NCBI GenBank assembly: GCA_037200965.1
Contig: JBBCGK010000001.1
Coordinates: 768,001-832,000 of the forward strand
Reading direction: 5' to 3'
Origin: a bacterium
GTDB lineage: Bacteria > Patescibacteriota > Minisyncoccia > Phycocordibacterales > Phycocordibacteraceae
DNA length: 64,000 bases
Every line of letters begins with the position of its first letter. Position 1 is the stretch's first letter. The position numbers and the translations under genes are program-made. Shown here in pieces: positions 1 through 22,260 of this stretch. Under the pieces are notes generated by a model. The model worked only from the letters and a program-made list of their open reading frames with translations, made no database searches and had not been told where the DNA came from.

Positions 1-3000
1 GGGGGACTCACCATCACCAACACGGGCATCACGTCCGTCACGCCGCAATTCGGTGCGGCCATCAGTAACGGCGGGCTAACCGTCGCGTCCTCGACGGCGG
101 GCACCGACTTTTCGATAACCGGATCGGGAAGCACGATCACGTTCAATCTTCCGACCGCGTCTGCCGCAAACCGCGGCTTGCTTTCCTCCGCCGACTGGAG
201 CGCCTTCAGCGCCAAGCAGGGCGCGCTTACGTTCGCGTATCCGCTCCAGAATAGCGCGAATACCGTATCGCTCGCCTTCGGGACGACGACCGCGAATACC
301 TGGGGACCGGTGCAAACTTTCACGAACGTTCCCGTGCTCGGCACTCTTTCGGGAATCATTTATGGGAATAACGGATCGCTTGCCGCGACCGCCACTTCGA
401 CGCTTGGCGTCGCGCTTGCGGACACTACGGGCTCGCTCCCGGTCGACCGGGGAGGCACCGGATCGACGACGCTCGGCGGCATTTTGAAGGGAAACGGAAC
501 TTCCGGCATCGCGACCGCCGTCCCCGGCATCGATTATCAGCCCGCCGGGAGCTATCTCACCGGCAACCAGACGGTTACGCTTTCGGGCGACGTCTCGGGA
601 AGCGGCGCCACTTCGATCACGACCGCGATCGGGGCGGGGAAGGTGACGAATGCGATGCTCCTGGGCGCTATTGCCGCCGCGAAGCTCATCGGAACCGATA
701 TCACGACCGTCGGGACGATCGTAAGCGGCGTGTGGCAGGGCTCCGTGATCGGATCAGCCTACGGCGGGGCGGGAGCCGTAAGCGGAATACTCAAAGCGAA
801 CGGTTCCGGCAACGTCTCCGCCGCCTCCGCCGGAACCGACTACGTCGCTCCGAACTCCTCGCCCACATTTGCGGGCCTCACGCTCCTAAGCGCGCTTCCC
901 GTCGCAAGCGGCGGGACGGGCTGGAGCGCGATACAGTCCGGCAGCATCCCGTACGGAAACGGTTCCGGTGCCCTCGCGACTACCTCGAGCGGGGCGGCGG
1001 GGAGCGTGCTCGCGCTTGTCGCCGGAGTTCCGGCCTGGGTCGCGACGACCACGTTCTCCACGGGCCTTACGTATACGGCCGGAAGCGTGACCGTGAACAC
1101 CGCACAGAGCATCGCGAAGCTTTCGAACCTGACAAGCAATGGATTCGTCAAAACTATAAACGGCGACGGCACGCTCTCGGTCGATACGAACACCTACCTC
1201 GCCTCCATTGGTCCCGCAGGACAAAGCCAGAGCGGCCCCGCAATTACGATCGCAACTTCGACCGCGGGAACCGACATATCGGTGACGGCTTCCGGCAATA
1301 CGATCACGTTCAACCTCCCGACCGCATCTGCCGCAAACCGCGGCTTGCTTTCCTCGTCCGATTGGACGACATTCAACGGCAAAGTGTCGACCGGCGCGTT
1401 CACATCCTCCGGCCTCACCCTTTCGACCGGTAAGCTTCTCGGAAGAAGTTTGGACGGTACGGGAGCGGCCGAAGAGATAACGGTCGGGAGCGGCCTCTCT
1501 CTTTCTGGCGGGACTCTCTCCGCGTCTGGGAGCGGCATCAGCGCACTTGGTCCTTCGGGACAAACCCAAAGCGGTGCGACGGTCACCATTGCCACCTCGA
1601 CAAGCCTTGCAAACGGCGTCACGTCCGCGCTTGTGGTCGTGGGTTCTTCGAACACGCTTATGTTCACTCCTTCCGTTTCCGGCGTGCTCACGGTTCCTGG
1701 GGGAGGCACCGGTGCCGGTACGCTCACGGGACTCGTTTCGGGAAACGGCACGAACGCTTTCACCGCGACCGCGAACGGCGCAAACGGCCAGGTGCTTGCT
1801 ATGTCCGCCGGAGCGCCGACCTGGGTCGCAACGACCACGTTCTCGACCGGACTTACGTACACGGCGGGCACGGTGACGGTCAACACGGTGCAAAGCGTCA
1901 CGAAGCTTTCGAATCTCGCCACGAACGGATTCGTGAAAACGATCAACGCCGACGGCACGCTCTCGATCGACACCAACACCTATCTCACCTCTGCCCTCAC
2001 CTCAATAGGTCCCGCCGGTCAGGTACAGAACGGCCCGGCTATCGTTATCGCCACCTCGACGACCGCATTTAACGGCATTACGGTGGGCGACACGATAACC
2101 GGTTCGGGGAACACGCTTACGTGGAAGCCCAGCTGGAGCGGTTCGCTCAGCGTCCCTGGCGGCGGCACGGGGGCGACTTCGTTCGGGCAGGGCTGGATAT
2201 TCTCAAGCGGCGGCACGGGTGCCCTTGCTGCCTCGACAAGCCCGACCGTGAACTATCTTATCGCCACCTCGACGACCGCCGCTTCGATCTTCAATTACCG
2301 CGTCGGCATCGGTACGAACGCCCCCGCAACCGCGCTTGACGTGAACGGCGATATCACGATCGAGACCTTGACCTGCAACACATCGCTCGTCGGACTGGGC
2401 ACCGACGCGAACGGCAAGATCTATTGCAAGAGCGTCGTAGGTTCCGATGAGCGGCTTAAGTCGAATATCGAAAGTCTCGGCGACGAAAATGGCCTTGCTC
2501 TCATAGACTCGCTGCGCCCTGTCTCCTATGACTGGAAGGACCCGAACGTGTATGGCGGCATGTCCGGCCTCCAGTACGGGTTCATCGCGCAGCAGGCGCT
2601 TTCTGCCGCGCCGACTCTCGTCGGCACGACGTCGCCGACAGAACTGACGCCCGACGTCACGTACACGTTCAACTATTTCGGCCTCATCGCGCCCCTCGTG
2701 AAAGCGACACAGCAGCTTGACGCGCGGTTCGGCGCGATTGCTTCAACGAGCGCGGATGCGTCTCCGACGTCTTTTGCTCAGGCATTCTTTGGCCGTCTTC
2801 GGGAATGGTTCGCCGACGCGGCAAACGGAATCGAGGACTTCTATGCGAATCGTGTCCATACTTCGCAACTATGCTTAGCAGTCTCCGGCGGGGAAGAGGA
2901 ATGCTTTACGGGCGACGAGCTGAAAGCCCTTAAGGAGAAAGCCGGACAGCATGACAAGGTTCCGCCGCCCGGCATCGGGCCTGTCATCATCGAGGATGTT

Positions 3001-3105
3001 CCGCCGCCGGACACCACTGCCTCATCGTCCGAGCCGGAATCAGAAGCCGCTGCGGCTATGCCAGTGCCTCCCGATCCCGCTACTGACTTACCCGCGCCCG
3101 AGTAA
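1..3105 (+). CDS. Large repetitive surface / tail-fibre-like protein with C-terminal peptidase S74 intramolecular chaperone domain (5' partial; ORF is open from nt 1).
   Basis: The frame is open from position 1; the track M at 178 is a TTG. Gly/Thr/Ser-rich with recurring GGTG motifs and long internal repeats (for example GSGNTITFNLPTASAANRGLLSS.DW at about nt 100 and 1290, and P.WVATTTFSTGLTYTAG.VTVNT at about 1020 and 1810). The C-terminus carries DERLKSNIESL...LRPVSYDWKD...YGFIAQQ, which is the endosialidase / tail-fibre chaperone (S74) signature, followed by a Pro-rich tail. Confidence 0.75.
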   Translation, partial: GGLTITNTGITSVTPQFGAAISNGGLTVASSTAGTDFSITGSGSTITFNLPTASAANRGLLSSADWSAFSAKQGALTFAYPLQNSANTVSLAFGTTTANTWGPVQTFTNVPVLGTLSGIIYGNNGSLAATATSTLGVALADTTGSLPVDRGGTGSTTLGGILKGNGTSGIATAVPGIDYQPAGSYLTGNQTVTLSGDVSGSGATSITTAIGAGKVTNAMLLGAIAAAKLIGTDITTVGTIVSGVWQGSVIGSAYGGAGAVSGILKANGSGNVSAASAGTDYVAPNSSPTFAGLTLLSALPVASGGTGWSAIQSGSIPYGNGSGALATTSSGAAGSVLALVAGVPAWVATTTFSTGLTYTAGSVTVNTAQSIAKLSNLTSNGFVKTINGDGTLSVDTNTYLASIGPAGQSQSGPAITIATSTAGTDISVTASGNTITFNLPTASAANRGLLSSSDWTTFNGKVSTGAFTSSGLTLSTGKLLGRSLDGTGAAEEITVGSGLSLSGGTLSASGSGISALGPSGQTQSGATVTIATSTSLANGVTSALVVVGSSNTLMFTPSVSGVLTVPGGGTGAGTLTGLVSGNGTNAFTATANGANGQVLAMSAGAPTWVATTTFSTGLTYTAGTVTVNTVQSVTKLSNLATNGFVKTINADGTLSIDTNTYLTSALTSIGPAGQVQNGPAIVIATSTTAFNGITVGDTITGSGNTLTWKPSWSGSLSVPGGGTGATSFGQGWIFSSGGTGALAASTSPTVNYLIATSTTAASIFNYRVGIGTNAPATALDVNGDITIETLTCNTSLVGLGTDANGKIYCKSVVGSDERLKSNIESLGDENGLALIDSLRPVSYDWKDPNVYGGMSGLQYGFIAQQALSAAPTLVGTTSPTELTPDVTYTFNYFGLIAPLVKATQQLDARFGAIASTSADASPTSFAQAFFGRLREWFADAANGIEDFYANRVHTSQLCLAVSGGEEECFTGDELKALKEKAGQHDKVPPPGIGPVIIEDVPPPDTTASSSEPESEAAAAMPVPPDPATDLPAPE

Positions 3106-4162
3106 GGGGGCCGAAGTATCCTGCGGCCGGAGCTATACCGTTTGCGACCTGATATTCCGCAAGCGCGGCCTGCGTGACCGGGCCGAAGTATCCCGTCGCT
3201 CCGGCTGCCGCGAGCGCGCGGGCTCCCGGCCCGCTGTTTTTCCCTATGAGAAATGCCTGAAGCGCGGTCACGTCGCTTCCGCGCGCGCCGACGATCAGGT
3301 CGCGATAGAAAGTTGAGGTGGTCACCGCCGTGTTTCCCGCTGCTTCAAGCGCGTCATCGATCGCGGAGGGAAGGTTCATGCCAAGCGCGAGCGCTCCGAG
3401 GAAGGTTCCGCGATAGTTTCGCACGAGCATTTCGGCATCCTCGTCTTCGTCTTCGTCATCGGCATCCTTAAGCGCGTCTTCGACCGCATCGATGCGCTCG
3501 TCGAGCGTGAATTCGCGGGCTAGGCGAGGGAACGGATCGGTCGCCGTCCTTCCGTGGCGTATCTCGAAATGGAGATGGGTTACTCCGCCTTTCGCGTCCC
3601 CGGTGTCTCCCACATACCCGATGAGGTCGCCTTTCTTGAGCACCGAGCCTCTCTTAAGCCCTTCGGCGAATTTGTCGAGATGCATGTACGCGAATGTCTC
3701 GTCCCCGGGATTCGCCGTATAGACATAGTTTCCGGCGCTCGAGCCCGTGCCCATGCTCGTCACCACCGCGTCGGTGGGGGAGACGATGTAGTCGTCCTTG
3801 GGCGCAAGGATGTCCTCGCCCTCGTGCTTGCGCGCCCCGCCGTCGCGCGGGTCGCCGAAGTTCGGCGTGATGTCCACGAGCGAAACGCCAAGCAGCACGG
3901 GTATCGGAAGGTTCTTGACGGGATCGTCGTCAAGCGCGTCGATGGCCTTCTGCGCCGCGGAAGATATGCCGCGGCGGGACGTCGCGCGTTCGATCGTCTC
4001 CTGGCTCGCGCTCCCTTCCGAGGAATTGCGCCAATAGTCGTATGTTCTCGAATACTGCGGCCGTGTCGCCGCCTGTGCGGCCGGCGGGCAAGCGGCCGCG
4101 AAGACGAACGCGCTGATAAAGGAAACGGCAAGCACCGCCCGTGCCCGGTAAGCGTATGTCAT
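3080..4162 (-). CDS. Secreted M23 family metallopeptidase with C-terminal peptidoglycan-binding (PG_binding_1-like) domain.
   Basis: N-terminal signal peptide. HLDKFAEGLKRGSVLKKGDLIGYVGDTGDAKGGVTHLHFEIRHG matches the M23 LytM-type HxH active-site region. The C-terminal ALQAFLIGKN...GYFGPVTQAALAEYQ resembles a PG-binding repeat. The 3' end overlaps the convergent fibre gene by about 26 nt. Confidence 0.8.
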   Translation of the reverse strand: MTYAYRARAVLAVSFISAFVFAAACPPAAQAATRPQYSRTYDYWRNSSEGSASQETIERATSRRGISSAAQKAIDALDDDPVKNLPIPVLLGVSLVDITPNFGDPRDGGARKHEGEDILAPKDDYIVSPTDAVVTSMGTGSSAGNYVYTANPGDETFAYMHLDKFAEGLKRGSVLKKGDLIGYVGDTGDAKGGVTHLHFEIRHGRTATDPFPRLAREFTLDERIDAVEDALKDADDEDEDEDAEMLVRNYRGTFLGALALGMNLPSAIDDALEAAGNTAVTTSTFYRDLIVGARGSDVTALQAFLIGKNSGPGARALAAAGATGYFGPVTQAALAEYQVANGIAPAAGYFGPLTRARVSQ

Positions 4163-4960: not shown

Positions 4961-5500
4961 ATGCGCCGCACTCGTCCTATGGCAGCTAAGAATGAAAAGA
5001 TGGATATAGATGTCTCCGAGCCAGTGCCCGAAGCGCCGTGGCCTCCGGCCGCGCCGGGACCAAGGAACGGGCGCAGGATGCGGCGCGGATGGTCCAAGAT
5101 TCTCGCCGCGCTCATCCTGGTCCTCGTCCTCGCCGCGCTTGCGTACTATTTTGTGCAATACCAGCGCCTCAGCCGCGACCCGGCGGTGGTCGCGCGGGCC
5201 GAAGACGCGAAAGTCATACAGGAACTTTCGAAGGTGATGGTGGTCCCGAACGATCCGAGCCCCGTCATTGCGACCGTGTCCGACAAAAGCAAGCTTGCCG
5301 ACCAGCCTTTCTTCGCGCAGGCGCAAAACGGCGACCAGGTCATCATCTTCCCGGTTTCGATGAAAGCCGTGCTCTATCGTCCGTCGGCCCGAAAAATAAT
5401 CGACATCGCGCCGCTTGCAACCGGTGCCTCGGCGTCTGCCGCCGCCCCGTCTCCCGTACCCGCAAAGGCGAAGGCGGCCGCGACGAGCACGACTCCTTAA
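4961..5500 (+). CDS. Hypothetical membrane-anchored protein (single TM, Ala/Pro-rich tail).
   Basis: Hydrophobic segment ILAALILVLVLAALAYYF and a low-complexity C-terminus. No recognisable domain. Codon bias is consistent with the neighbouring genes. Confidence 0.4.
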   Translation: MRRTRPMAAKNEKMDIDVSEPVPEAPWPPAAPGPRNGRRMRRGWSKILAALILVLVLAALAYYFVQYQRLSRDPAVVARAEDAKVIQELSKVMVVPNDPSPVIATVSDKSKLADQPFFAQAQNGDQVIIFPVSMKAVLYRPSARKIIDIAPLATGASASAAAPSPVPAKAKAAATSTTP

Positions 5501-5504
5501 ACGC

Positions 5505-6689
5505 ATGAATATCCGACTCGGCACCATTTCGCTCGTCGCACTCATTTTCTTTTCCTTCGCGCTTCCCGCGTTCGCGTCGGAAACATCCGGAACGGTGCTC
5601 GATTCGCAGAAGTTCGGATGGGGCGACAAGATCGGGTGGATCAATTTCGCACCGACCGACGGCTCCGAGTACGTCGGCCTCGTGATCACCGACAGCGCGG
5701 TGACGGGCTTCGCGTGGAGCAGGGATTTCGGATGGATACGGTTCGATCCGCCGAATTCCGGACAGGGGGTTACGAACACGCCGGAAGGCGTTCTTGGCGG
5801 TTCCGCATGGGTCGCGTCGCTCGGATGGATATCGATGGAGGGCGTAACGATAAATCAAAACGGCGAGTTCACGGGCATCGCCGGAGTCGCTGGCACCGAT
5901 ACCGCGCGTATTTCCTTCGATTGCTCGCGGTGCGGCGTGCAGACTGACTGGCGCCCGGCATCCGTGCGAGGCGGCGGCGGAAACAACGGGGGAGGCAGCG
6001 GCAACAACGGGCGTTCCGGCAGTTCCGTTCCGGACGCATCCTCGCCAGAACCCTCCTCAAGCGGTGGCGGGATCGGTATCGTGCCGTTCTTTCAGAACTT
6101 ATTTACGGGCATCTTCGGCGCAGCTCCCGGGACGAACGCCGGTACCGCTGGCGCGGCGGGCGCTGCCGTTCCGAACAGCCTGTTCGACATTTCGCTCGCG
6201 CTTGAAAAGAGCGTCGTGCCCGCAGGCGAGCCGCTCGTCGCGCTCGTCTCGTTCGCGAACTTCGGAAAGGTTACTACCGCGGCCGACCTCGCCTTCTCCA
6301 TCGTCAACGGCGAGGGAACCGTATTCGCGACATCGACCGCGCGCACGAGCGTCGAAACCGAGAACCTCGTGCGGCAGACGTTTGCTACGACGGCATTCTC
6401 TCCCGGAACGTACTGGATAAAGCTCAGGGTCACGTACGGTTCGCCCGTCATCACCGAAGACTTCAACCAGCAGTTCACAATCACGGCCGCGCAGACGTTC
6501 GCCGGGCGGTGCGGGTTCCCGTGGCCGCTGTCGTATGCCGTGGATCACATCGCGTTCCTCGCCTGGTTCGGCTGTGTATTCCCGTGGATCATCATTATCG
6601 TCACGATACTGATGATCGTCGCTCTCTTCTATTATCTTGTTCATCCGCGTGGAAAGGACCGGCATGCGGCCCGCGCTTTCTCCCGATGA
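5505..6689 (+). CDS. Secreted protein with three GW(I)xF-type repeats, a Gly/Asn-rich linker, a CARDB-like beta-sandwich region and a C-terminal TM anchor.
   Basis: Signal peptide MNIRLGTISLVALIFFSFALPAFA. Repeats GWGDKIGWINFAP, GFAWSRDFGWIRFDP and SAWVASLGWISMEG. C-terminal hydrophobic stretch FPWIIIIVTILMIVALFYYLV. The stop overlaps the next start (ATGA). Confidence 0.55.
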   Translation: MNIRLGTISLVALIFFSFALPAFASETSGTVLDSQKFGWGDKIGWINFAPTDGSEYVGLVITDSAVTGFAWSRDFGWIRFDPPNSGQGVTNTPEGVLGGSAWVASLGWISMEGVTINQNGEFTGIAGVAGTDTARISFDCSRCGVQTDWRPASVRGGGGNNGGGSGNNGRSGSSVPDASSPEPSSSGGGIGIVPFFQNLFTGIFGAAPGTNAGTAGAAGAAVPNSLFDISLALEKSVVPAGEPLVALVSFANFGKVTTAADLAFSIVNGEGTVFATSTARTSVETENLVRQTFATTAFSPGTYWIKLRVTYGSPVITEDFNQQFTITAAQTFAGRCGFPWPLSYAVDHIAFLAWFGCVFPWIIIIVTILMIVALFYYLVHPRGKDRHAARAFSR

Positions 6690-18349: not shown

Positions 18350-19978
18350 ATGGACATCAATACCTGCTTCGCTACGACAAGCGCATTTCGTGAACTGGCC
18401 CTCTATTCCCACCTCGTTCCAGGGGTTGCGAGCCTTATTCTCGGAGCAGTTGCCTATTTCAATGCGCCGAATAGGTACAAAGCCGTTTTCTTCTTCGGTT
18501 TTACCATTGCGTTCGCTCTCTGGCTCGGCGGAGACTTAATCAATTGGGTGGCGAATGACTATCATCTCGTCGCGGCCACCTGGGCGCCGCTCGACTATAT
18601 CAATATCGTATTTTTCGCGCTCCTCTTCGGTTTTGTCTATACTGACCTGTCTTCGCGCCCGATGCCGGTGTGGCTCTCGGGACTTCTGATTCTCTCCGCC
18701 GTTGTGCCTTTTTTCCTTACGGTAACCGGTCAGGCCGTCTTTCAGCTGAACCAGCCGCAATGCGAAATGGTCGATAACGAATTTCTTGCGAACTACAAGG
18801 CGATATTTGAAGCCCTGATTTTGGGAGCGACGCTCCTGTTCGGTATATATCGAATGATACAGTCATGGAAAAATCGCCGTGAACGGATTCGCGTACTGCT
18901 TGTCGTTGGCTCCATCGTTTTGTTCATGGGCATTTTTGCCGGAGCAGAATACGTGTCGACAGCGACTTCCATATTCGAAATAACCTTGTATTCACTCTTC
19001 GCTCTTCCGTTTTTCATCCTTTTCCTGACTATTGCGATTACCAATTACGAAACATTCAAGATCGGCGATAAGGGAGTCCAGGTACTTTTCTACATATTCA
19101 TTCTGATCGGCGGCGCTGAGTTCTTCTTCGTTCAAAATCCTACCGATCTTCTCCTGACCATTTTAGGATTTGCCGTAACCCTCGGATTCGGTGCACTCCT
19201 TTTTCAGTCGGCCAAGCGAGAGATACGCAACAGGCACGAGATCGAAGAACTGGCTGGGAATTTGGAGGCCGCGAACGCGCGGCTCAAGGAGCTCGACCAG
19301 CTCAAGAGCGAATTCCTTTCGATCGCGTCGCACCAGCTGCGCGCCCCGCTTACCGCTATTCGCGGCTACGCCTCTCTCGTTGTCCAGGGCGACTACGGGA
19401 CTGTTCCGGAGGCCCTCAAAGAGCCGCTGGATCGCATTGCCGAGTCTTCGCGCGTCATGGCGTCCTCTATTGAGGATTATCTGAATATCTCCCGCATCGA
19501 GCAGGGAAGGCTCAAGTACGAAATGGCGCCCGTCGCGCTTGGCGACCTCGCGCGCAAAGTCACCGACGAGCTGCGACCCGTCGCGACGGAACACGGACTT
19601 GCGCTCACTTATCTCGCTCCTCCTCAGGAAGTCACGGTGACGGCGGATGTTGGGAAGGTAAAACAGGTTATCACCAACCTCGTCGACAACGCGATCAAGT
19701 ACACGCCCGCCGGAAGCGTATCGGTCGCCGTTGAAAGGGCTGGTGTCGGCGCCCGCGTCACCGTTTCCGATACGGGCATCGGCATCGGGAAAGATGAGAT
19801 CGGCGGGCTCTTCGAGAAATTCAAGCGCGCCCGCGACGCGAACAAGGTGAACACGACCGGAACCGGGCTCGGGCTCTATGTCGCCAAGCAGCTGGTCGAG
19901 GGTCATAAGGGGAAGATATGGATCGAGTCCGAAGGCACAGGCAAGGGCACGAAGTTTATCGTTGAGCTTCCGGCGTAG
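18350..19978 (+). CDS. Sensor histidine kinase with polytopic (7TM-like) N-terminal membrane domain.
   Basis: About 7 TM helices, then a coiled coil, HisKA (LSIASHQLRAPLTAIRGYASL) and HATPase_c (NLVDNAIKYTP...DTGIGIGKDE...GTGLGLYVAKQLV). Confidence 0.8.
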   Translation: MDINTCFATTSAFRELALYSHLVPGVASLILGAVAYFNAPNRYKAVFFFGFTIAFALWLGGDLINWVANDYHLVAATWAPLDYINIVFFALLFGFVYTDLSSRPMPVWLSGLLILSAVVPFFLTVTGQAVFQLNQPQCEMVDNEFLANYKAIFEALILGATLLFGIYRMIQSWKNRRERIRVLLVVGSIVLFMGIFAGAEYVSTATSIFEITLYSLFALPFFILFLTIAITNYETFKIGDKGVQVLFYIFILIGGAEFFFVQNPTDLLLTILGFAVTLGFGALLFQSAKREIRNRHEIEELAGNLEAANARLKELDQLKSEFLSIASHQLRAPLTAIRGYASLVVQGDYGTVPEALKEPLDRIAESSRVMASSIEDYLNISRIEQGRLKYEMAPVALGDLARKVTDELRPVATEHGLALTYLAPPQEVTVTADVGKVKQVITNLVDNAIKYTPAGSVSVAVERAGVGARVTVSDTGIGIGKDEIGGLFEKFKRARDANKVNTTGTGLGLYVAKQLVEGHKGKIWIESEGTGKGTKFIVELPA

Positions 19979-20060
19979 TGTAATAATCCCCCCCATCTCT
20001 TTTTCTCCAGCTGTGGAGAAAAGTACTTTAGTTATATAGAATCGAGGTTACTATATACCT

Positions 20061-20735
20061 ATGGCTAAGAGCGATAGAAAACAAGAAGCAAGGCGACTTC
20101 GCGCCCGCGGACTTATGTTTGCTGAGATTGCAAAGCGGTTGAATATTTCAAAGTCCACGGCGGGGCTTTGGTGTAAAGATTTGAAGCTCACTTCGATCGC
20201 TTTAGCAAAGCTTGCAAAAAAAGCTGGAGACGGACGCCAAAGAGGAAGGCTACTCGGTTCTCAAGCGATCAAGCGGGCAAGACTCGAAAGAGTGAATCAG
20301 GCAGAAACAGAGGCCAGGAAACTCATTGGAATGATCAATGCCCGCGATTTACTGGTAGCAGGTGCTGCGTTGTATTGGGGTGAAGGAAGTAAAGATAGAA
20401 AGCTAACTTTTACCAACACCAATCCTCACATGTTGCGATTTGTTCTTAAGTGGTTTTTCGATTCCTTGAACGTTGCTCATGAGGACATTCGTGTCTGGAT
20501 ATACATTAATTCTACTCACGCGGATAGAAGCACCCAGATTTTCCGTTTTTGGAGACGCGAACTGGGATTGCCAGCTGCTCAATTTGCCAATCCGGTTTTA
20601 CTTAAAGCAAGACAAGGAAAGGTTTACGAAAAACGCGAAACGTATTATGGTGTAGTATCGCTTCGGATAAAGAAAAGTACCGAATTGCAGTACAAGATTC
20701 TTGGTCTTATAAAAGCGATGCAATTGCCGGCGTAG
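20061..20735 (+). CDS. HTH + LAGLIDADG-like homing-endonuclease-like protein (tentative); low-GC insertion.
   Basis: N-terminal sigma-70 region-4-like HTH (LRARGLMFAEIAKRLNISKSTAGLW). Central LLVAGAALYWGEGSK resembles a LAGLIDADG motif. GC is clearly lower than the flanks. The last 10 nt overlap the 5' acceptor stem of tRNA-Met. Confidence 0.4.
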   Translation: MAKSDRKQEARRLRARGLMFAEIAKRLNISKSTAGLWCKDLKLTSIALAKLAKKAGDGRQRGRLLGSQAIKRARLERVNQAETEARKLIGMINARDLLVAGAALYWGEGSKDRKLTFTNTNPHMLRFVLKWFFDSLNVAHEDIRVWIYINSTHADRSTQIFRFWRRELGLPAAQFANPVLLKARQGKVYEKRETYYGVVSLRIKKSTELQYKILGLIKAMQLPA

Positions 20736-20800
20736 TTCAAGGGTTAGAACGAGACACTCATAAAGTCTAGACGGTGGCTCGACTCCACCCGCCGGCACCA
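20726..20800 (+). tRNA. tRNA-Met (anticodon CAT), CCA encoded.
   Basis: Hand-folded: acceptor GCCGGCG/CGCCGGC; D-arm GTTC-AAGGGTTA-GAAC; anticodon loop CTCATAA with U33 and A37; T-arm GGTGG-CTCGACT-CCACC; discriminator A followed by CCA. Confidence 0.75.
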
Positions 20801-20833
20801 AGATTCGGGCAGGACACGGTATACTGGGGGTGA

Positions 20834-21088
20834 ATGGACATACCTCTCCTCATCATCGGCACGATCGGCGCAGCAGTCCTTCTTGCGGCGTTCGCGCTTG
20901 AGCAAACGGGCGTGATTACTGACAAATCCTATGCCTACGACTGTGCCAATGTCATCGGTTCGGGGCTTTTGGGCTGGTATGCGTTCGTGGGCCACGTCTA
21001 CCCATTCGTCGTGCTTGAGGTGGTATGGGCTACGGTTGCCCTATACTACATCCTCGGCCGTCTTGCCGGGAAGGGCAAAGGCGGGTAA
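20834..21088 (+). CDS. Small membrane protein (2-3 TM), hypothetical.
   Basis: 84 aa, strongly hydrophobic, with good codon usage. Confidence 0.4.
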   Translation: MDIPLLIIGTIGAAVLLAAFALEQTGVITDKSYAYDCANVIGSGLLGWYAFVGHVYPFVVLEVVWATVALYYILGRLAGKGKGG

Positions 21089-21149
21089 AGTATCGAAGCT
21101 GCGAGAACGCGATGCCCGCGTCGTCTCGCGGCATAAGCTGGTTTTCAAT

Positions 21150-21221
21150 TGCGGCTGTAGCTCAACGGTAGAGCGCCGCCCTGTCACGGCGGAGGCCGTG
21201 GGGTCAGCACCCATCAGCCGC
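21150..21221 (+). tRNA. tRNA-Asp (anticodon GTC), no encoded CCA, atypical T-loop.
   Basis: Acceptor GCGGCTG/CAGCCGC; D-arm GCTC-AACGGTA-GAGC; anticodon stem CCGCC/GGCGG with loop CTGTCAC. The T-arm GTGGG-GTCAGCA-CCCAT deviates from the TTCGAAT consensus. Confidence 0.6.
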
Positions 21222-21223
21222 GC

Positions 21224-21260
21224 AAAATGAATGAGCCCCGTACGGGGCTCATTCATTTTG
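21224..21260. terminator. Bidirectional rho-independent terminator.
   Basis: AAAATGAATGAGCCCCG-TAC-CGGGGCTCATTCATTTT, a 17-bp stem flanked by A and T runs, between tRNA-Asp (+) and the convergent gene at 21282 (-). Confidence 0.7.
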
Positions 21261-21281
21261 CGCGGCGCTTAGCAGCAAACG

Positions 21282-21662
21282 CTACGCCCCTCTCCTGTGC
21301 CGCTGTGCGTCGAGTTCCCGGAGTTCCTTGAATTCCTCCTGGAGCACGTCGAGCGCCTTATCCTCAAGATCCTCCGCATCGATAAATGAGTTGCGCGCGG
21401 GCTTGATAGCGCGGATGACCTCGTCAAGCTTCAGGTGTATCGCATGCGCGTCGCGGTTCTGCGTATTTTGGATGAGAAAGACCATGAGGAAGGTGAGGAT
21501 GGTCGTTCCCGTGTTAATGACGAGCTGCCAGGTGTCCGAGAAGCCGAAGACAGGTCCTGTTGCTCCCCAGACGACGATCGCAAGCACGGCGACGACAAAA
21601 GCTCCCGGCGAGCCGGTAGCCTTGCTGGTCCAGTGCGCGATGCGCCTGAAGAGGCTGCTCAT
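21282..21662 (-). CDS. Low-affinity iron permease family protein (small bacterial Fet4-like, PF04120-type).
   Basis: Two TM helices and the conserved TILTFLMVFLIQNTQNRD stretch typical of this family. Assigned from memory. Confidence 0.55.
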   Translation of the reverse strand: MSSLFRRIAHWTSKATGSPGAFVVAVLAIVVWGATGPVFGFSDTWQLVINTGTTILTFLMVFLIQNTQNRDAHAIHLKLDEVIRAIKPARNSFIDAEDLEDKALDVLQEEFKELRELDAQRHRRGA

Positions 21663-21678
21663 GAATATCGCTGGCAGC

Positions 21679-21906
21679 CTACGACCACTTCGCCCCCTGG
21701 TGGTTTTCCTTGCAGCACTTGCAGCCTCCGAGCTTTACGGCGCCGATGACGATGAGAAGGACCGGCCAGATAACGGCAACGGCTCCCATGGTGAGGATAT
21801 CCCAAGTCTGAAGTAGGAATGCGAGACCGATGAGAATGATGGCGACCGGCACGACCTTGTGGTGCGGGCACTTGCAGACTTTCATTTCCATATGATTGTT
21901 TTCCAT
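21679..21906 (-). CDS. Small Cys/His-rich membrane protein (hypothetical).
   Basis: KVCKCPHHK ... TM ... TM ... GGCKCCKENH, which may bind metal. Confidence 0.4.
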   Translation of the reverse strand: MENNHMEMKVCKCPHHKVVPVAIILIGLAFLLQTWDILTMGAVAVIWPVLLIVIGAVKLGGCKCCKENHQGAKWS

Positions 21907-22037
21907 GCGGTACGGTTACGGTTTATAAGCAACGCTTTAAGGATAGCACGTGGGCTTTAGGCGCCAGCGGGCCGGGTGCGTTACTTTGGCTTCACTGCGT
22001 TACGTGCTAGCATCGGCTAGTTCCTTTCGGGGAACAT

Positions 22038-22110
22038 GCCGATGTAGCTCAGCTGGTAGAGCAACTCCATGGTAAGGAGTAGGTCCCCGGTTCAAATCCG
22101 GGCATCGGCT
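22038..22110 (+). tRNA. tRNA-Thr (anticodon GGT).
   Basis: GCCGATG acceptor; D-arm GCTC-AGCTGGTA-GAGC; anticodon stem ACTCC/GGAGT with loop ATGGTAA; T-arm CCCGG-TTCAAAT-CCGGG. Confidence 0.85.
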
Positions 22111-22180
22111 CAGAGGTAAAAAGCACTCGTAGTCCAGCTCACTGTTGTGAGAGTGCGTTCTGTGGTAAAAATCTAGGTAC

Positions 22181-22253
22181 GCCGGAGTAGCTCAGTTGGT
22201 AGAGCACGTCATTCGTAATGACGGGGTCGTCGGTTCAATCCCGACCTCCGGCT
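22181..22253 (+). tRNA. tRNA-Thr (anticodon CGT).
   Basis: GCCGGAG acceptor; D-arm GCTC-AGTTGGTA-GAGC; anticodon stem CGTCA/TGACG with loop TTCGTAA; T-arm GTCGG-TTCAATC-CCGAC. Confidence 0.85.
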
Positions 22254-22260
22254 CAAGCAC

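Follow-up and report, generated by a model that had tools for sequence, protein, structure and literature searches.

A probable free-standing LAGLIDADG homing endonuclease gene with its stop codon in tRNA-Met, and its tRNA-linked family in Patescibacteria

Why would a protein-coding gene end inside a tRNA? The stretch of DNA analysed here, 64,000 nt of a Patescibacteria genome (assembly GCA_037200965.1, contig JBBCGK010000001.1, positions 768,001 to 832,000 of the forward strand; "the window" in what follows), holds a 224-codon open reading frame (ORF) that runs from an ATG to a TAG on the plus strand and shares its last 10 nt with the beginning of a tRNA-Met(CAT) gene, such that its stop codon at 20733-20735 is the near-universal U8-A9-G10 of the tRNA. 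Both the ORF and the overlap had been read from the letters alone in an original prediction, and both hold: ARAGORN and the Rfam model RF00005 (60.7 bits, expect value (E) 7e-12) agree on the tRNA and place its first nucleotide 10 nt before the ORF's end. Its low GC content is equally real, with 0.45 in the ORF vs 0.563 in the whole window, and 0.42 at third codon positions (GC3) vs 0.66 in the kinase gene upstream and 0.68 in the gene for an 84-amino-acid (aa) protein downstream. We consider it likely, from sequence comparison and structure prediction, that this ORF is a free-standing LAGLIDADG homing endonuclease gene targeting a specific tRNA gene or the 5′ junction of that gene.

How exceptional is the arrangement? 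A word-indexed database returned 18 homologs, all unnamed or generically named, and an exhaustive profile search brought up 1,577 cluster representatives at E ≤ 1e-30 and ~5,000 at E ≤ 1e-10, nearly all of them full-length matches of 215-240 aa. The family is unannotated and stems mostly from the ultra-small bacteria of the Patescibacteria. Its genomic surroundings were read from a scan of species-representative genomes with a narrower family alignment (A2), a first alignment (A1) being too diverse, which yielded 80 loci with 81 copies, nearly all from Patescibacteria and a few from Acidimicrobiia and Omnitrophota. For 75 of these 81 copies, the ORF ends within ~50 nt of the first nucleotide of a tRNA in the same orientation, and because the same geometry recurs so regularly at homologous loci, the overlap in the window is not a product of chance. 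Two of the remaining copies run off their contig, leaving four true exceptions. In two of these (L078 and L086) it is the ORF start that is abutted by the 5′ end of a tRNA, here a divergent one, and a third (L085, family ORF at 2944-3660) adjoins a group I intron, with no tRNA detectable beside the ORF. This intron (2682-2880, minus strand), which matches the Rfam model RF00028 at 52.8 bits (E 1e-10), sits just upstream of the family ORF and may be the mark of an intron-split tRNA that ARAGORN missed.

Non-redundant ORFs beside a tRNA number 78: 49 run into the tRNA, 22 end 0-20 nt and another seven 21-50 nt before it. The commonest overlap lengths are 10, 15, 23 or 39 nt, and the 10-nt geometry of the window is found at 19 other family loci. 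Elsewhere the ORF reaches further: in L001 and L005 it extends 39 and 37 nt, respectively, into tRNA-Met, and its stop is the TAA of the anticodon loop (tCATAA), while in L004 the stop lies 4 nt before the tRNA.

Which tRNA is met is written in the protein. The clade to which a copy belongs predicts the tRNA species in 76 of 78 cases—Met(CAT) in 56/56, Lys(CTT) in 10/10, Gln(TTG) in 6/6, Arg(TCG) in 2/2 and Val(TAC) in 2/2—and the only misses are tRNA types represented by a singleton. Even a single genome may house more than one specificity: L079 carries two paralogs within 6.6 kb, one (2956-3654) ending 18 nt upstream of a tRNA-Arg(TCG) and the other (5012-5698) 6 nt upstream of a tRNA-Gly(GCC). 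Relatives on viral contigs (L146-L156, several of them 100-500 kb long) are, in 11 of 11 cases, wedged into dense tRNA arrays, some in the direction of the tRNAs and some against it; the ORF of L146, for instance, has a tRNA-Val gene on each side and shares 10 nt with the downstream one. More distant paralogs (E 1e-23 to 1e-26) were also seen on the same contigs as tRNA-Met, namely in L102 and L130 (~1.26 kb downstream of the tRNA-Met), L117 and L120.

Is the gene a fixed companion of its tRNA? We scanned metagenomes for the window's tRNA-Met allele, found 54 loci and counted ORF status wherever there was enough upstream sequence. The ORF was present at ~11-14 of these loci and missing from ~26-30, that is, from about two thirds of the loci with the same allele. 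One of the empty loci, L098, is syntenic with the window: the 3′ end of a histidine-kinase gene, then ATTTGCTAGGGTGCTATATATT, then tRNA-Met, with 22 nt between the kinase stop and the tRNA. Over 721 nt, the kinase ortholog matches window positions 19260-19971 with 70% identity, the alignment reaching its last codons, and where L098 has these 22 nt, the window has 82 nt plus the 675-nt ORF after the kinase stop. L122 and L130 (filled) vs L119 (empty) form a second such pair. Presence and absence thus alternate at a defined, conserved site, as the original prediction had proposed to check. The foreign composition is a family trait as well, for the ORF is AT-richer than its flanks at 79 of 82 loci (mean difference -5.7 GC points); this AT-richness and the copies in viral-contig tRNA arrays both speak of horizontal movement. 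The ratio of nonsynonymous to synonymous substitution rates (dN/dS) among related copies, in turn, is 0.06-0.32; the gene is therefore under purifying selection and its protein maintained by selection. What had been described as a free-standing, homing-endonuclease-like selfish element upstream of a tRNA is supported by the patchy sites and the composition; the description is too narrow rather than mistaken, since this is no one-off landing but a family-wide association, with each clade tied to one tRNA species.

What kind of protein does the gene encode? For its N-terminal part, Pfam gives helix-turn-helix (HTH) matches only, at residues 2-37 and all sub-threshold (HTH_7 and HTH_23, E ~5e-3; HTH_38), with HTH_23 reaching E 1.7e-6 in other family members. 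PHROGs return generic DNA-binding families only, and the domain matches the HTH domains of resolvase, Tc3, Sleeping Beauty and DeoR. The HTH as such had been foreseen; its label as sigma region 4, however, rests poorly on a Sigma70_r4 match at E 0.1 (Pfam), below cut-off, and a resolvase-, homeodomain- or transposase-type HTH describes it better. The LAGLIDADG-like motif of the original prediction, LLVAGAALYWGEGSK, fared well: it is the family's most conserved stretch and aligns with the second LAGLIDADG motif of I-DmoI. When sequences in the Protein Data Bank (PDB) were searched with an 18-sequence family profile, I-DmoI ranked first (E ~0.02), and with a 130-sequence profile, the top nine matches were all I-DmoI (E 1.2e-4 to 5e-3). 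The alignment spans the LAGLIDADG helix, the catalytic Glu (E117), the Lys three residues on (K120), the next strand and the next helix, HMMER setting LYVAEGDK of I-DmoI against LYWGEGSK of the family. Position 108, the counterpart of the catalytic Glu, is E in 127 of 130 family members and D in two more; G109 is kept in 129/130, K or R at position 111 in 126/130, and N119 and Y105 in 126/130 each; K111 as such, like G109 and N119, is kept in at least 91%. Of the hidden Markov model searches meant to settle the domains, those for HTH families were thus positive at sub-threshold level and those with Pfam's LAGLIDADG_1/2/3 negative, and the link to I-DmoI came from the family profile only.

AlphaFold models are confident: the full-length protein is modelled with a mean predicted local distance difference test (pLDDT) of 86.9 and the C-terminal domain with a pLDDT of 88.7 and a predicted template-modelling (pTM) score of 0.80, and the predicted C-terminal half shows the alpha-beta-beta-alpha-beta-beta-alpha core of the LAGLIDADG fold. 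Tandem fusions of two modules are to be expected if proteins with one domain pair up into a dimer that has two active sites, and such fusions exist: P0025, P0032, P0033, P0036, P0040, P0055 and P0108 are natural proteins of 400-576 aa in which two full HTH-LAGLIDADG modules are joined, both of them with a YWCEGxK motif. This suggests a dimeric unit, the window protein itself having one domain. Other variants stack two to four HTH modules at the N-terminus (P0075, P0116, P0120, P0123, P0124, P0140, P0153). Our conclusion from these comparisons is that the protein consists of a single, divergent LAGLIDADG domain, with its catalytic motif intact and a putative nuclease activity, to which an HTH domain is fused at the N-terminus. 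Neither a different fold nor universal conservation upstream of the tRNA nor a host-like composition was found.

How might such a gene make its living? In the homing endonuclease interpretation, the protein would dimerise via the LAGLIDADG helix, so that two active sites form, both of which use E108, and the dimer would recognise DNA within one particular tRNA gene and/or at the 5′ junction of that gene (the elongator tRNA-Met in this case), with the HTH domain adding binding energy. Alleles without the gene would be cut, and recombinational repair would copy the gene in, the highly conserved tRNA gene serving as downstream homology arm. With the tRNA gene being both conserved recognition sequence and homology arm, the gene would always come to lie pressed against or into the tRNA 5′ end, and clades would have radiated onto different tRNAs. 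As the tRNA stays intact, the host would pay little.

Several observations weigh against this interpretation. No nuclease family model matched in Pfam, NCBIfam, PHROG or a single-sequence PDB search; the Pfam LAGLIDADG models (PF00961, PF03161, PF14528) in particular gave no match at E ≤ 10 for the window protein, nor did they appear among the top families of 18 members. A Foldseek search of PDB with the full-length model returned no LAGLIDADG match but weak, generic alpha/beta sandwiches (IspF, YfiB; template-modelling (TM) score ~0.25), and the structural scores are modest overall. At the level of the locus, the flanks of the best filled/empty pairs are 67-70% identical, too divergent for exact insertion boundaries, and the sequence upstream of empty sites is not conserved, hence a recognition site that spans the junction must tolerate one degenerate half. 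All contigs that encode an identical downstream 84-aa protein (the window's own strain) carry the ORF, so that there is no polymorphism at strain level. Decayed remnants of the ORF were sought upstream of 34 empty tRNA-Met sites and none was found: the matches were the tRNA-encoded tail of one query, and the few short extensions upstream of it were not significant. Such absence of remnants, together with purifying selection, fits an ongoing homing cycle, but fits a function beneficial to the host as well. Finally, the tRNA next to the gene is intact, which leaves self-immunity unexplained.

Could the protein serve its host instead? A domesticated LAGLIDADG-plus-HTH DNA-binding protein might bind the promoter or 5′ region of the neighbouring tRNA gene and regulate transcription of the tRNA, or its own, without cutting. 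A precedent is WhiA (DUF199), a LAGLIDADG-derived transcription factor that likewise combines this fold with an HTH. Purifying selection and the 34 empty sites without decayed copies would suit such a regulator, and an inverted repeat (GAAC/GTTC) around a TATAAT just upstream of many copies could be its operator. WhiA, however, is a conserved housekeeping regulator with two degenerate LAGLIDADG domains and a C-terminal HTH, and WhiA-type proteins have lost the catalytic acids, whereas the present family has one domain, an N-terminal HTH, a patchy distribution and a Glu or Asp in 129/130 members, plus the Lys three residues on; the WhiA model PF14527 of Pfam does not match the window protein. 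Patchy presence at one tRNA allele, foreign composition, residence in viral-contig tRNA arrays and a radiation of one clade per tRNA are, moreover, typical of selfish elements, and two thirds of related genomes lack the gene. We thus regard a WhiA-like regulator as unlikely. Less likely by far is a factor that acts on the co-transcribed tRNA precursor at the RNA level, be it maturase-like or in processing or quality control. LAGLIDADG proteins do act as intron maturases, as is known from proteins of fungal mitochondrial group I introns such as I-AniI; the ORF is tightly linked to a specific tRNA, co-oriented with it and often overlapping it, and L085 adjoins a group I intron. Yet the neighbouring tRNAs are ordinary, intron-less and of normal score, the protein is dispensed with in most related genomes, which mature the same tRNA nonetheless, copies divergent to their tRNA (L078, L086, L147, L150) rule out obligatory co-transcription, and the N-terminal domain matches HTH families that bind DNA.

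That tRNA genes are classical integration sites raises one more candidate, namely another kind of mobile element: a tRNA-targeting integrative element, with the tRNA as attachment site, or the remnant of an IS630/Tc1-type transposase, with the HTH as its DNA-binding domain. The NCBIfam model of IS630 transposase does match, at E 7e-4, as do the DNA-binding domains of Sleeping Beauty and Tc3, but these matches are weak and confined to the HTH; in the case of IS630, protein residues 7-71 align with positions 2-62 of a 299-position model, scoring 19 bits vs a cut-off of 100. The DDE/DDD catalytic domain that follows the paired HTH in IS630/Tc1-mariner elements is missing, the C-terminal half being LAGLIDADG-like, and the protein and the surroundings of the ORF are free of DDE, integrase and recombinase domains. 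What distinguishes the filled from the empty site is a single gene (~750 nt) at the tRNA 5′ end, while integrases typically target 3′ ends, and the window locus has neither terminal repeats nor a duplicated tRNA fragment. With a single-gene insertion and no recombinase domain, we rejected this explanation, to which we would grant hardly any credence.

The homing endonuclease interpretation, by contrast, invites comparison with the known enzymes closest to the family. As in I-DmoI, the signature helix of the family ends in an acidic residue plus Gly, followed by the Lys three residues on, and as in I-CreI, the architecture is single-domain, implying a homodimer. Unlike enzymes of the I-DmoI/I-CreI type, the family is too divergent for Pfam's LAGLIDADG_1/2/3, has gained an N-terminal HTH and a helical linker of ~50 residues, and is free-standing, found in no intron or intein and located beside, rather than inside, its presumed target gene. 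Closer in host are the single-domain LAGLIDADG enzymes from rRNA insertion sequences of the Candidate Phyla Radiation (CPR), one of which, I-ShaI, was shown biochemically to be a homodimer and to cleave the insertion site actively and site-specifically (PMC11270868). Host phylum, single domain and a highly conserved structural-RNA gene as target are common to both, but the CPR rRNA enzymes are encoded in intervening sequences inside rRNA genes, which are removed from the RNA, whereas the present family occupies intergenic positions 5′ of tRNA genes and possesses an HTH in addition; tRNA loci are not mentioned in that paper. As a system, the closest is SegB of phage T4, a free-standing homing endonuclease from a tRNA cluster whose 27-bp recognition site lies in tRNA genes and includes the T-psi-C motif, and which drives preferential inheritance of the tRNA region (PMC2330249). 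Members of our family, too, are free-standing among tRNA genes, including those of viral contigs. However, the likeness is functional and positional only: the catalytic domain of SegB is GIY-YIG, for which the family gave no match in Pfam, PHROGs or PDB, and SegB is confined to phage, accepts many different tRNA genes in its relaxed specificity and cleaves them at the 3′ end, while the family is mainly chromosomal in Patescibacteria, with each clade tied to one tRNA species and to the 5′ end.

A survey of tRNA introns in Patescibacteria reported that most such introns lack endonuclease genes and makes no mention of this intergenic family (PMC13011429), and no description of it came up in the library of papers searched. 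The enzyme class is already known, and so is the idea of endonuclease genes among tRNA genes. What appears to be new is the family itself, its fusion to an HTH, the strict position at the tRNA 5′ edge with stop codons supplied by the tRNA, and the specificity of one clade per tRNA.

How are two genes expressed that share nucleotides? In the window (Table 1), the sole promoter-like site precedes the ORF and, a TATAAA near the ORF's end aside, there is no room for a separate tRNA promoter; ORF and tRNA-Met therefore probably form one transcript, the promoter-like site driving the ORF and, by read-through, the tRNA. On that transcript, the cut of ribonuclease P (RNase P) at tRNA +1 would remove the ORF's last two codons along with its stop codon, and protein synthesis and tRNA maturation would be mutually exclusive on one RNA molecule. 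The TATAAA, which recurs in L001, is a possible internal tRNA promoter, a reading in which we place low confidence.

Table 1. Features of the ORF/tRNA-Met locus, in window coordinates
Feature	Position	Strand	Basis and remarks
Segment absent from L098, ~750 nt (82-nt upstream region + ORF up to tRNA +1)	19979..20725	+	Boundaries approximate, the genomes being ~70% identical
Terminator-like hairpin TTTTTCTCCAGCTGTGGAGAAAAG, just past the histidine-kinase stop codon (19976-19978); parts the kinase from the ORF/tRNA unit	20000..20023		Terminator-like site; 10-bp stem in minimum-free-energy fold
Only plus-strand sigma-70-like promoter match upstream of the ORF, TGGAGA-17-TAGAAT	20014..20042	+	Consensus match, 9/12; 1.2 such expected by chance in the region
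ORF, 224 codons, ATG..TAG (N-terminal HTH, long helical linker, single LAGLIDADG-like domain)	20061..20735	+	Sequence, profile searches, predicted structure
N-terminal HTH domain, residues 1-40	20061..20180	+	Three helices, 2-15, 20-27 and 31-37; W37 invariant
Helical linker, residues 41-90 (helices 45-56 and 58-89)	20181..20330	+	Secondary structure of AlphaFold model, pLDDT 70-91
Putative LAGLIDADG-like nuclease domain, residues 91-220	20331..20720	+	
LAGLIDADG-equivalent helix and putative active-site motif, A-R-D-L-L-V-A-G-A-A-L-Y-W-G-E108-G-S-K111	20340..20393	+	Family conservation, I-DmoI alignment
TATAAA, -10-like hexamer within the codons for the conserved C-terminal L-I-K; ends 12 nt before tRNA +1	20708..20713	+	Read from sequence; no -35 match
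tRNA-Met(CAT), elongator-type (G1-C72), CCA end encoded	20726..20800	+	ARAGORN and Rfam RF00005
ORF/tRNA-Met overlap, 10 nt	20726..20735	+	ORF codons P-A-stop (CCG GCG TAG) = tRNA positions 2-10

What probably holds for the window does not hold for the whole family. Empty sites (L095, L098, L108, L114, L119, L120, L121, L126 and L137) display extended -10-like boxes (TGCTAGnGT or TAGTAAGGT) 10-20 nt before tRNA-Met +1, which implies very short 5′ leaders of these tRNAs, and at several filled sites such a box is retained in the stretch from the ORF stop to the tRNA. Given these retained boxes and the copies divergent to the adjacent tRNA, we rejected obligatory co-transcription for the family. 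The original prediction had offered co-transcription and release by tRNA processing as an alternative to a selfish element; it is compatible with the anatomy of the window, falls short of a family rule since some copies keep a tRNA promoter, and is no rival to homing.

At the other end of the gene, the inverted repeat GAAC-N..TATAAT..N-GTTC, ending 0-4 nt before the ATG, occurs at 14 of 76 loci vs 2.7 expected (among them L018, L019, L020, L037, L045, L054, L064-L068, L087 and L089), the window copy having a weak, AT-rich version only. The repeat, whose outer GAAC and GTTC are conserved, might fold into a hairpin that masks translation and holds a promoter, or else be an operator or other protein-binding site. 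In T4, the intron-encoded endonuclease genes reportedly have a promoter within a hairpin that masks the start site and blocks translation of read-through transcripts (Gott et al. 1988, Genes Dev). The predicted hairpin/TATAAT layout before the ATG in a subset of our family resembles this.

Taken further, these features lead to a wider proposal, which we put forward tentatively and hold to be more doubtful than probable. The family might constitute a natural panel of tRNA-gene-specific meganucleases that are rendered harmless by tRNA processing instead of self-splicing: the gene would insert into the tRNA 5′ leader and be excised from the tRNA precursor by RNase P, while nucleotides that are invariant in the tRNA, be it U8-A9-G10 or UAA in the anticodon loop CAU-A-A, would supply its stop codon. 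Translation of the endonuclease and maturation of the tRNA would compete for one transcript, with stop-less mRNAs passed on to transfer-messenger RNA (tmRNA), and each clade would read the DNA of a different tRNA, letting the family spread over Patescibacteria and phage tRNA arrays.

Why does this matter? If active, the proteins would form a large, so far unnamed branch of LAGLIDADG meganucleases, whose genomic position points to their probable targets, specific tRNA genes, and would thereby make target prediction and engineering unusually tractable. If the homing endonuclease interpretation is true, Patescibacteria with their tiny genomes would harbour homing endonuclease genes in three niches, tRNA 5′ edges joining the rRNA insertion sequences and tRNA introns, and the chromosomes of these bacteria and the tRNA arrays of phages would be a shared habitat of the same selfish gene. 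With the stop codon inside a tRNA in 49 of the 78 copies, a further question is how a single transcript accommodates translation, processing by RNase P and rescue by tmRNA. New names could also be given to several thousand annotated "hypothetical proteins", "XRE-family regulators" and "transposase-like proteins".

Some further observations concern the neighbourhood of these tRNAs. The window's tRNA order Met-Asp-Thr(GGT)-Thr(CGT) (20726-22254) recurs in several Patescibacteria loci (L013, L016, L025, L027). Upstream of the ORF, at a distance of 60-180 nt, many loci hold another tRNA-Met of initiator-like type (C1/A72), in some on the plus and in others on the minus strand. This led us to reject an element that duplicates part or all of the tRNA, for the upstream tRNA is a different species rather than a copy, and the window has none. 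L098, empty upstream of its tRNA-Met, has directly downstream of it a different ORF with a textbook LAGLIDADG motif (reverse strand, re-oriented, ~2520-2824, running off the contig), and both flanks of this tRNA-Met seem to be habitats for LAGLIDADG genes. In L005, the upstream initiator-like tRNA-Met begins with 12 nt (TGCGGGGTAGTG) that occur a second time ~115 nt further upstream (~5553-5564 and 5668-5679), flanked by the inverted repeat CGCAAAATT / AATTTTGCG; this duplication may have been left by a further insertion at the 5′ end of a tRNA.

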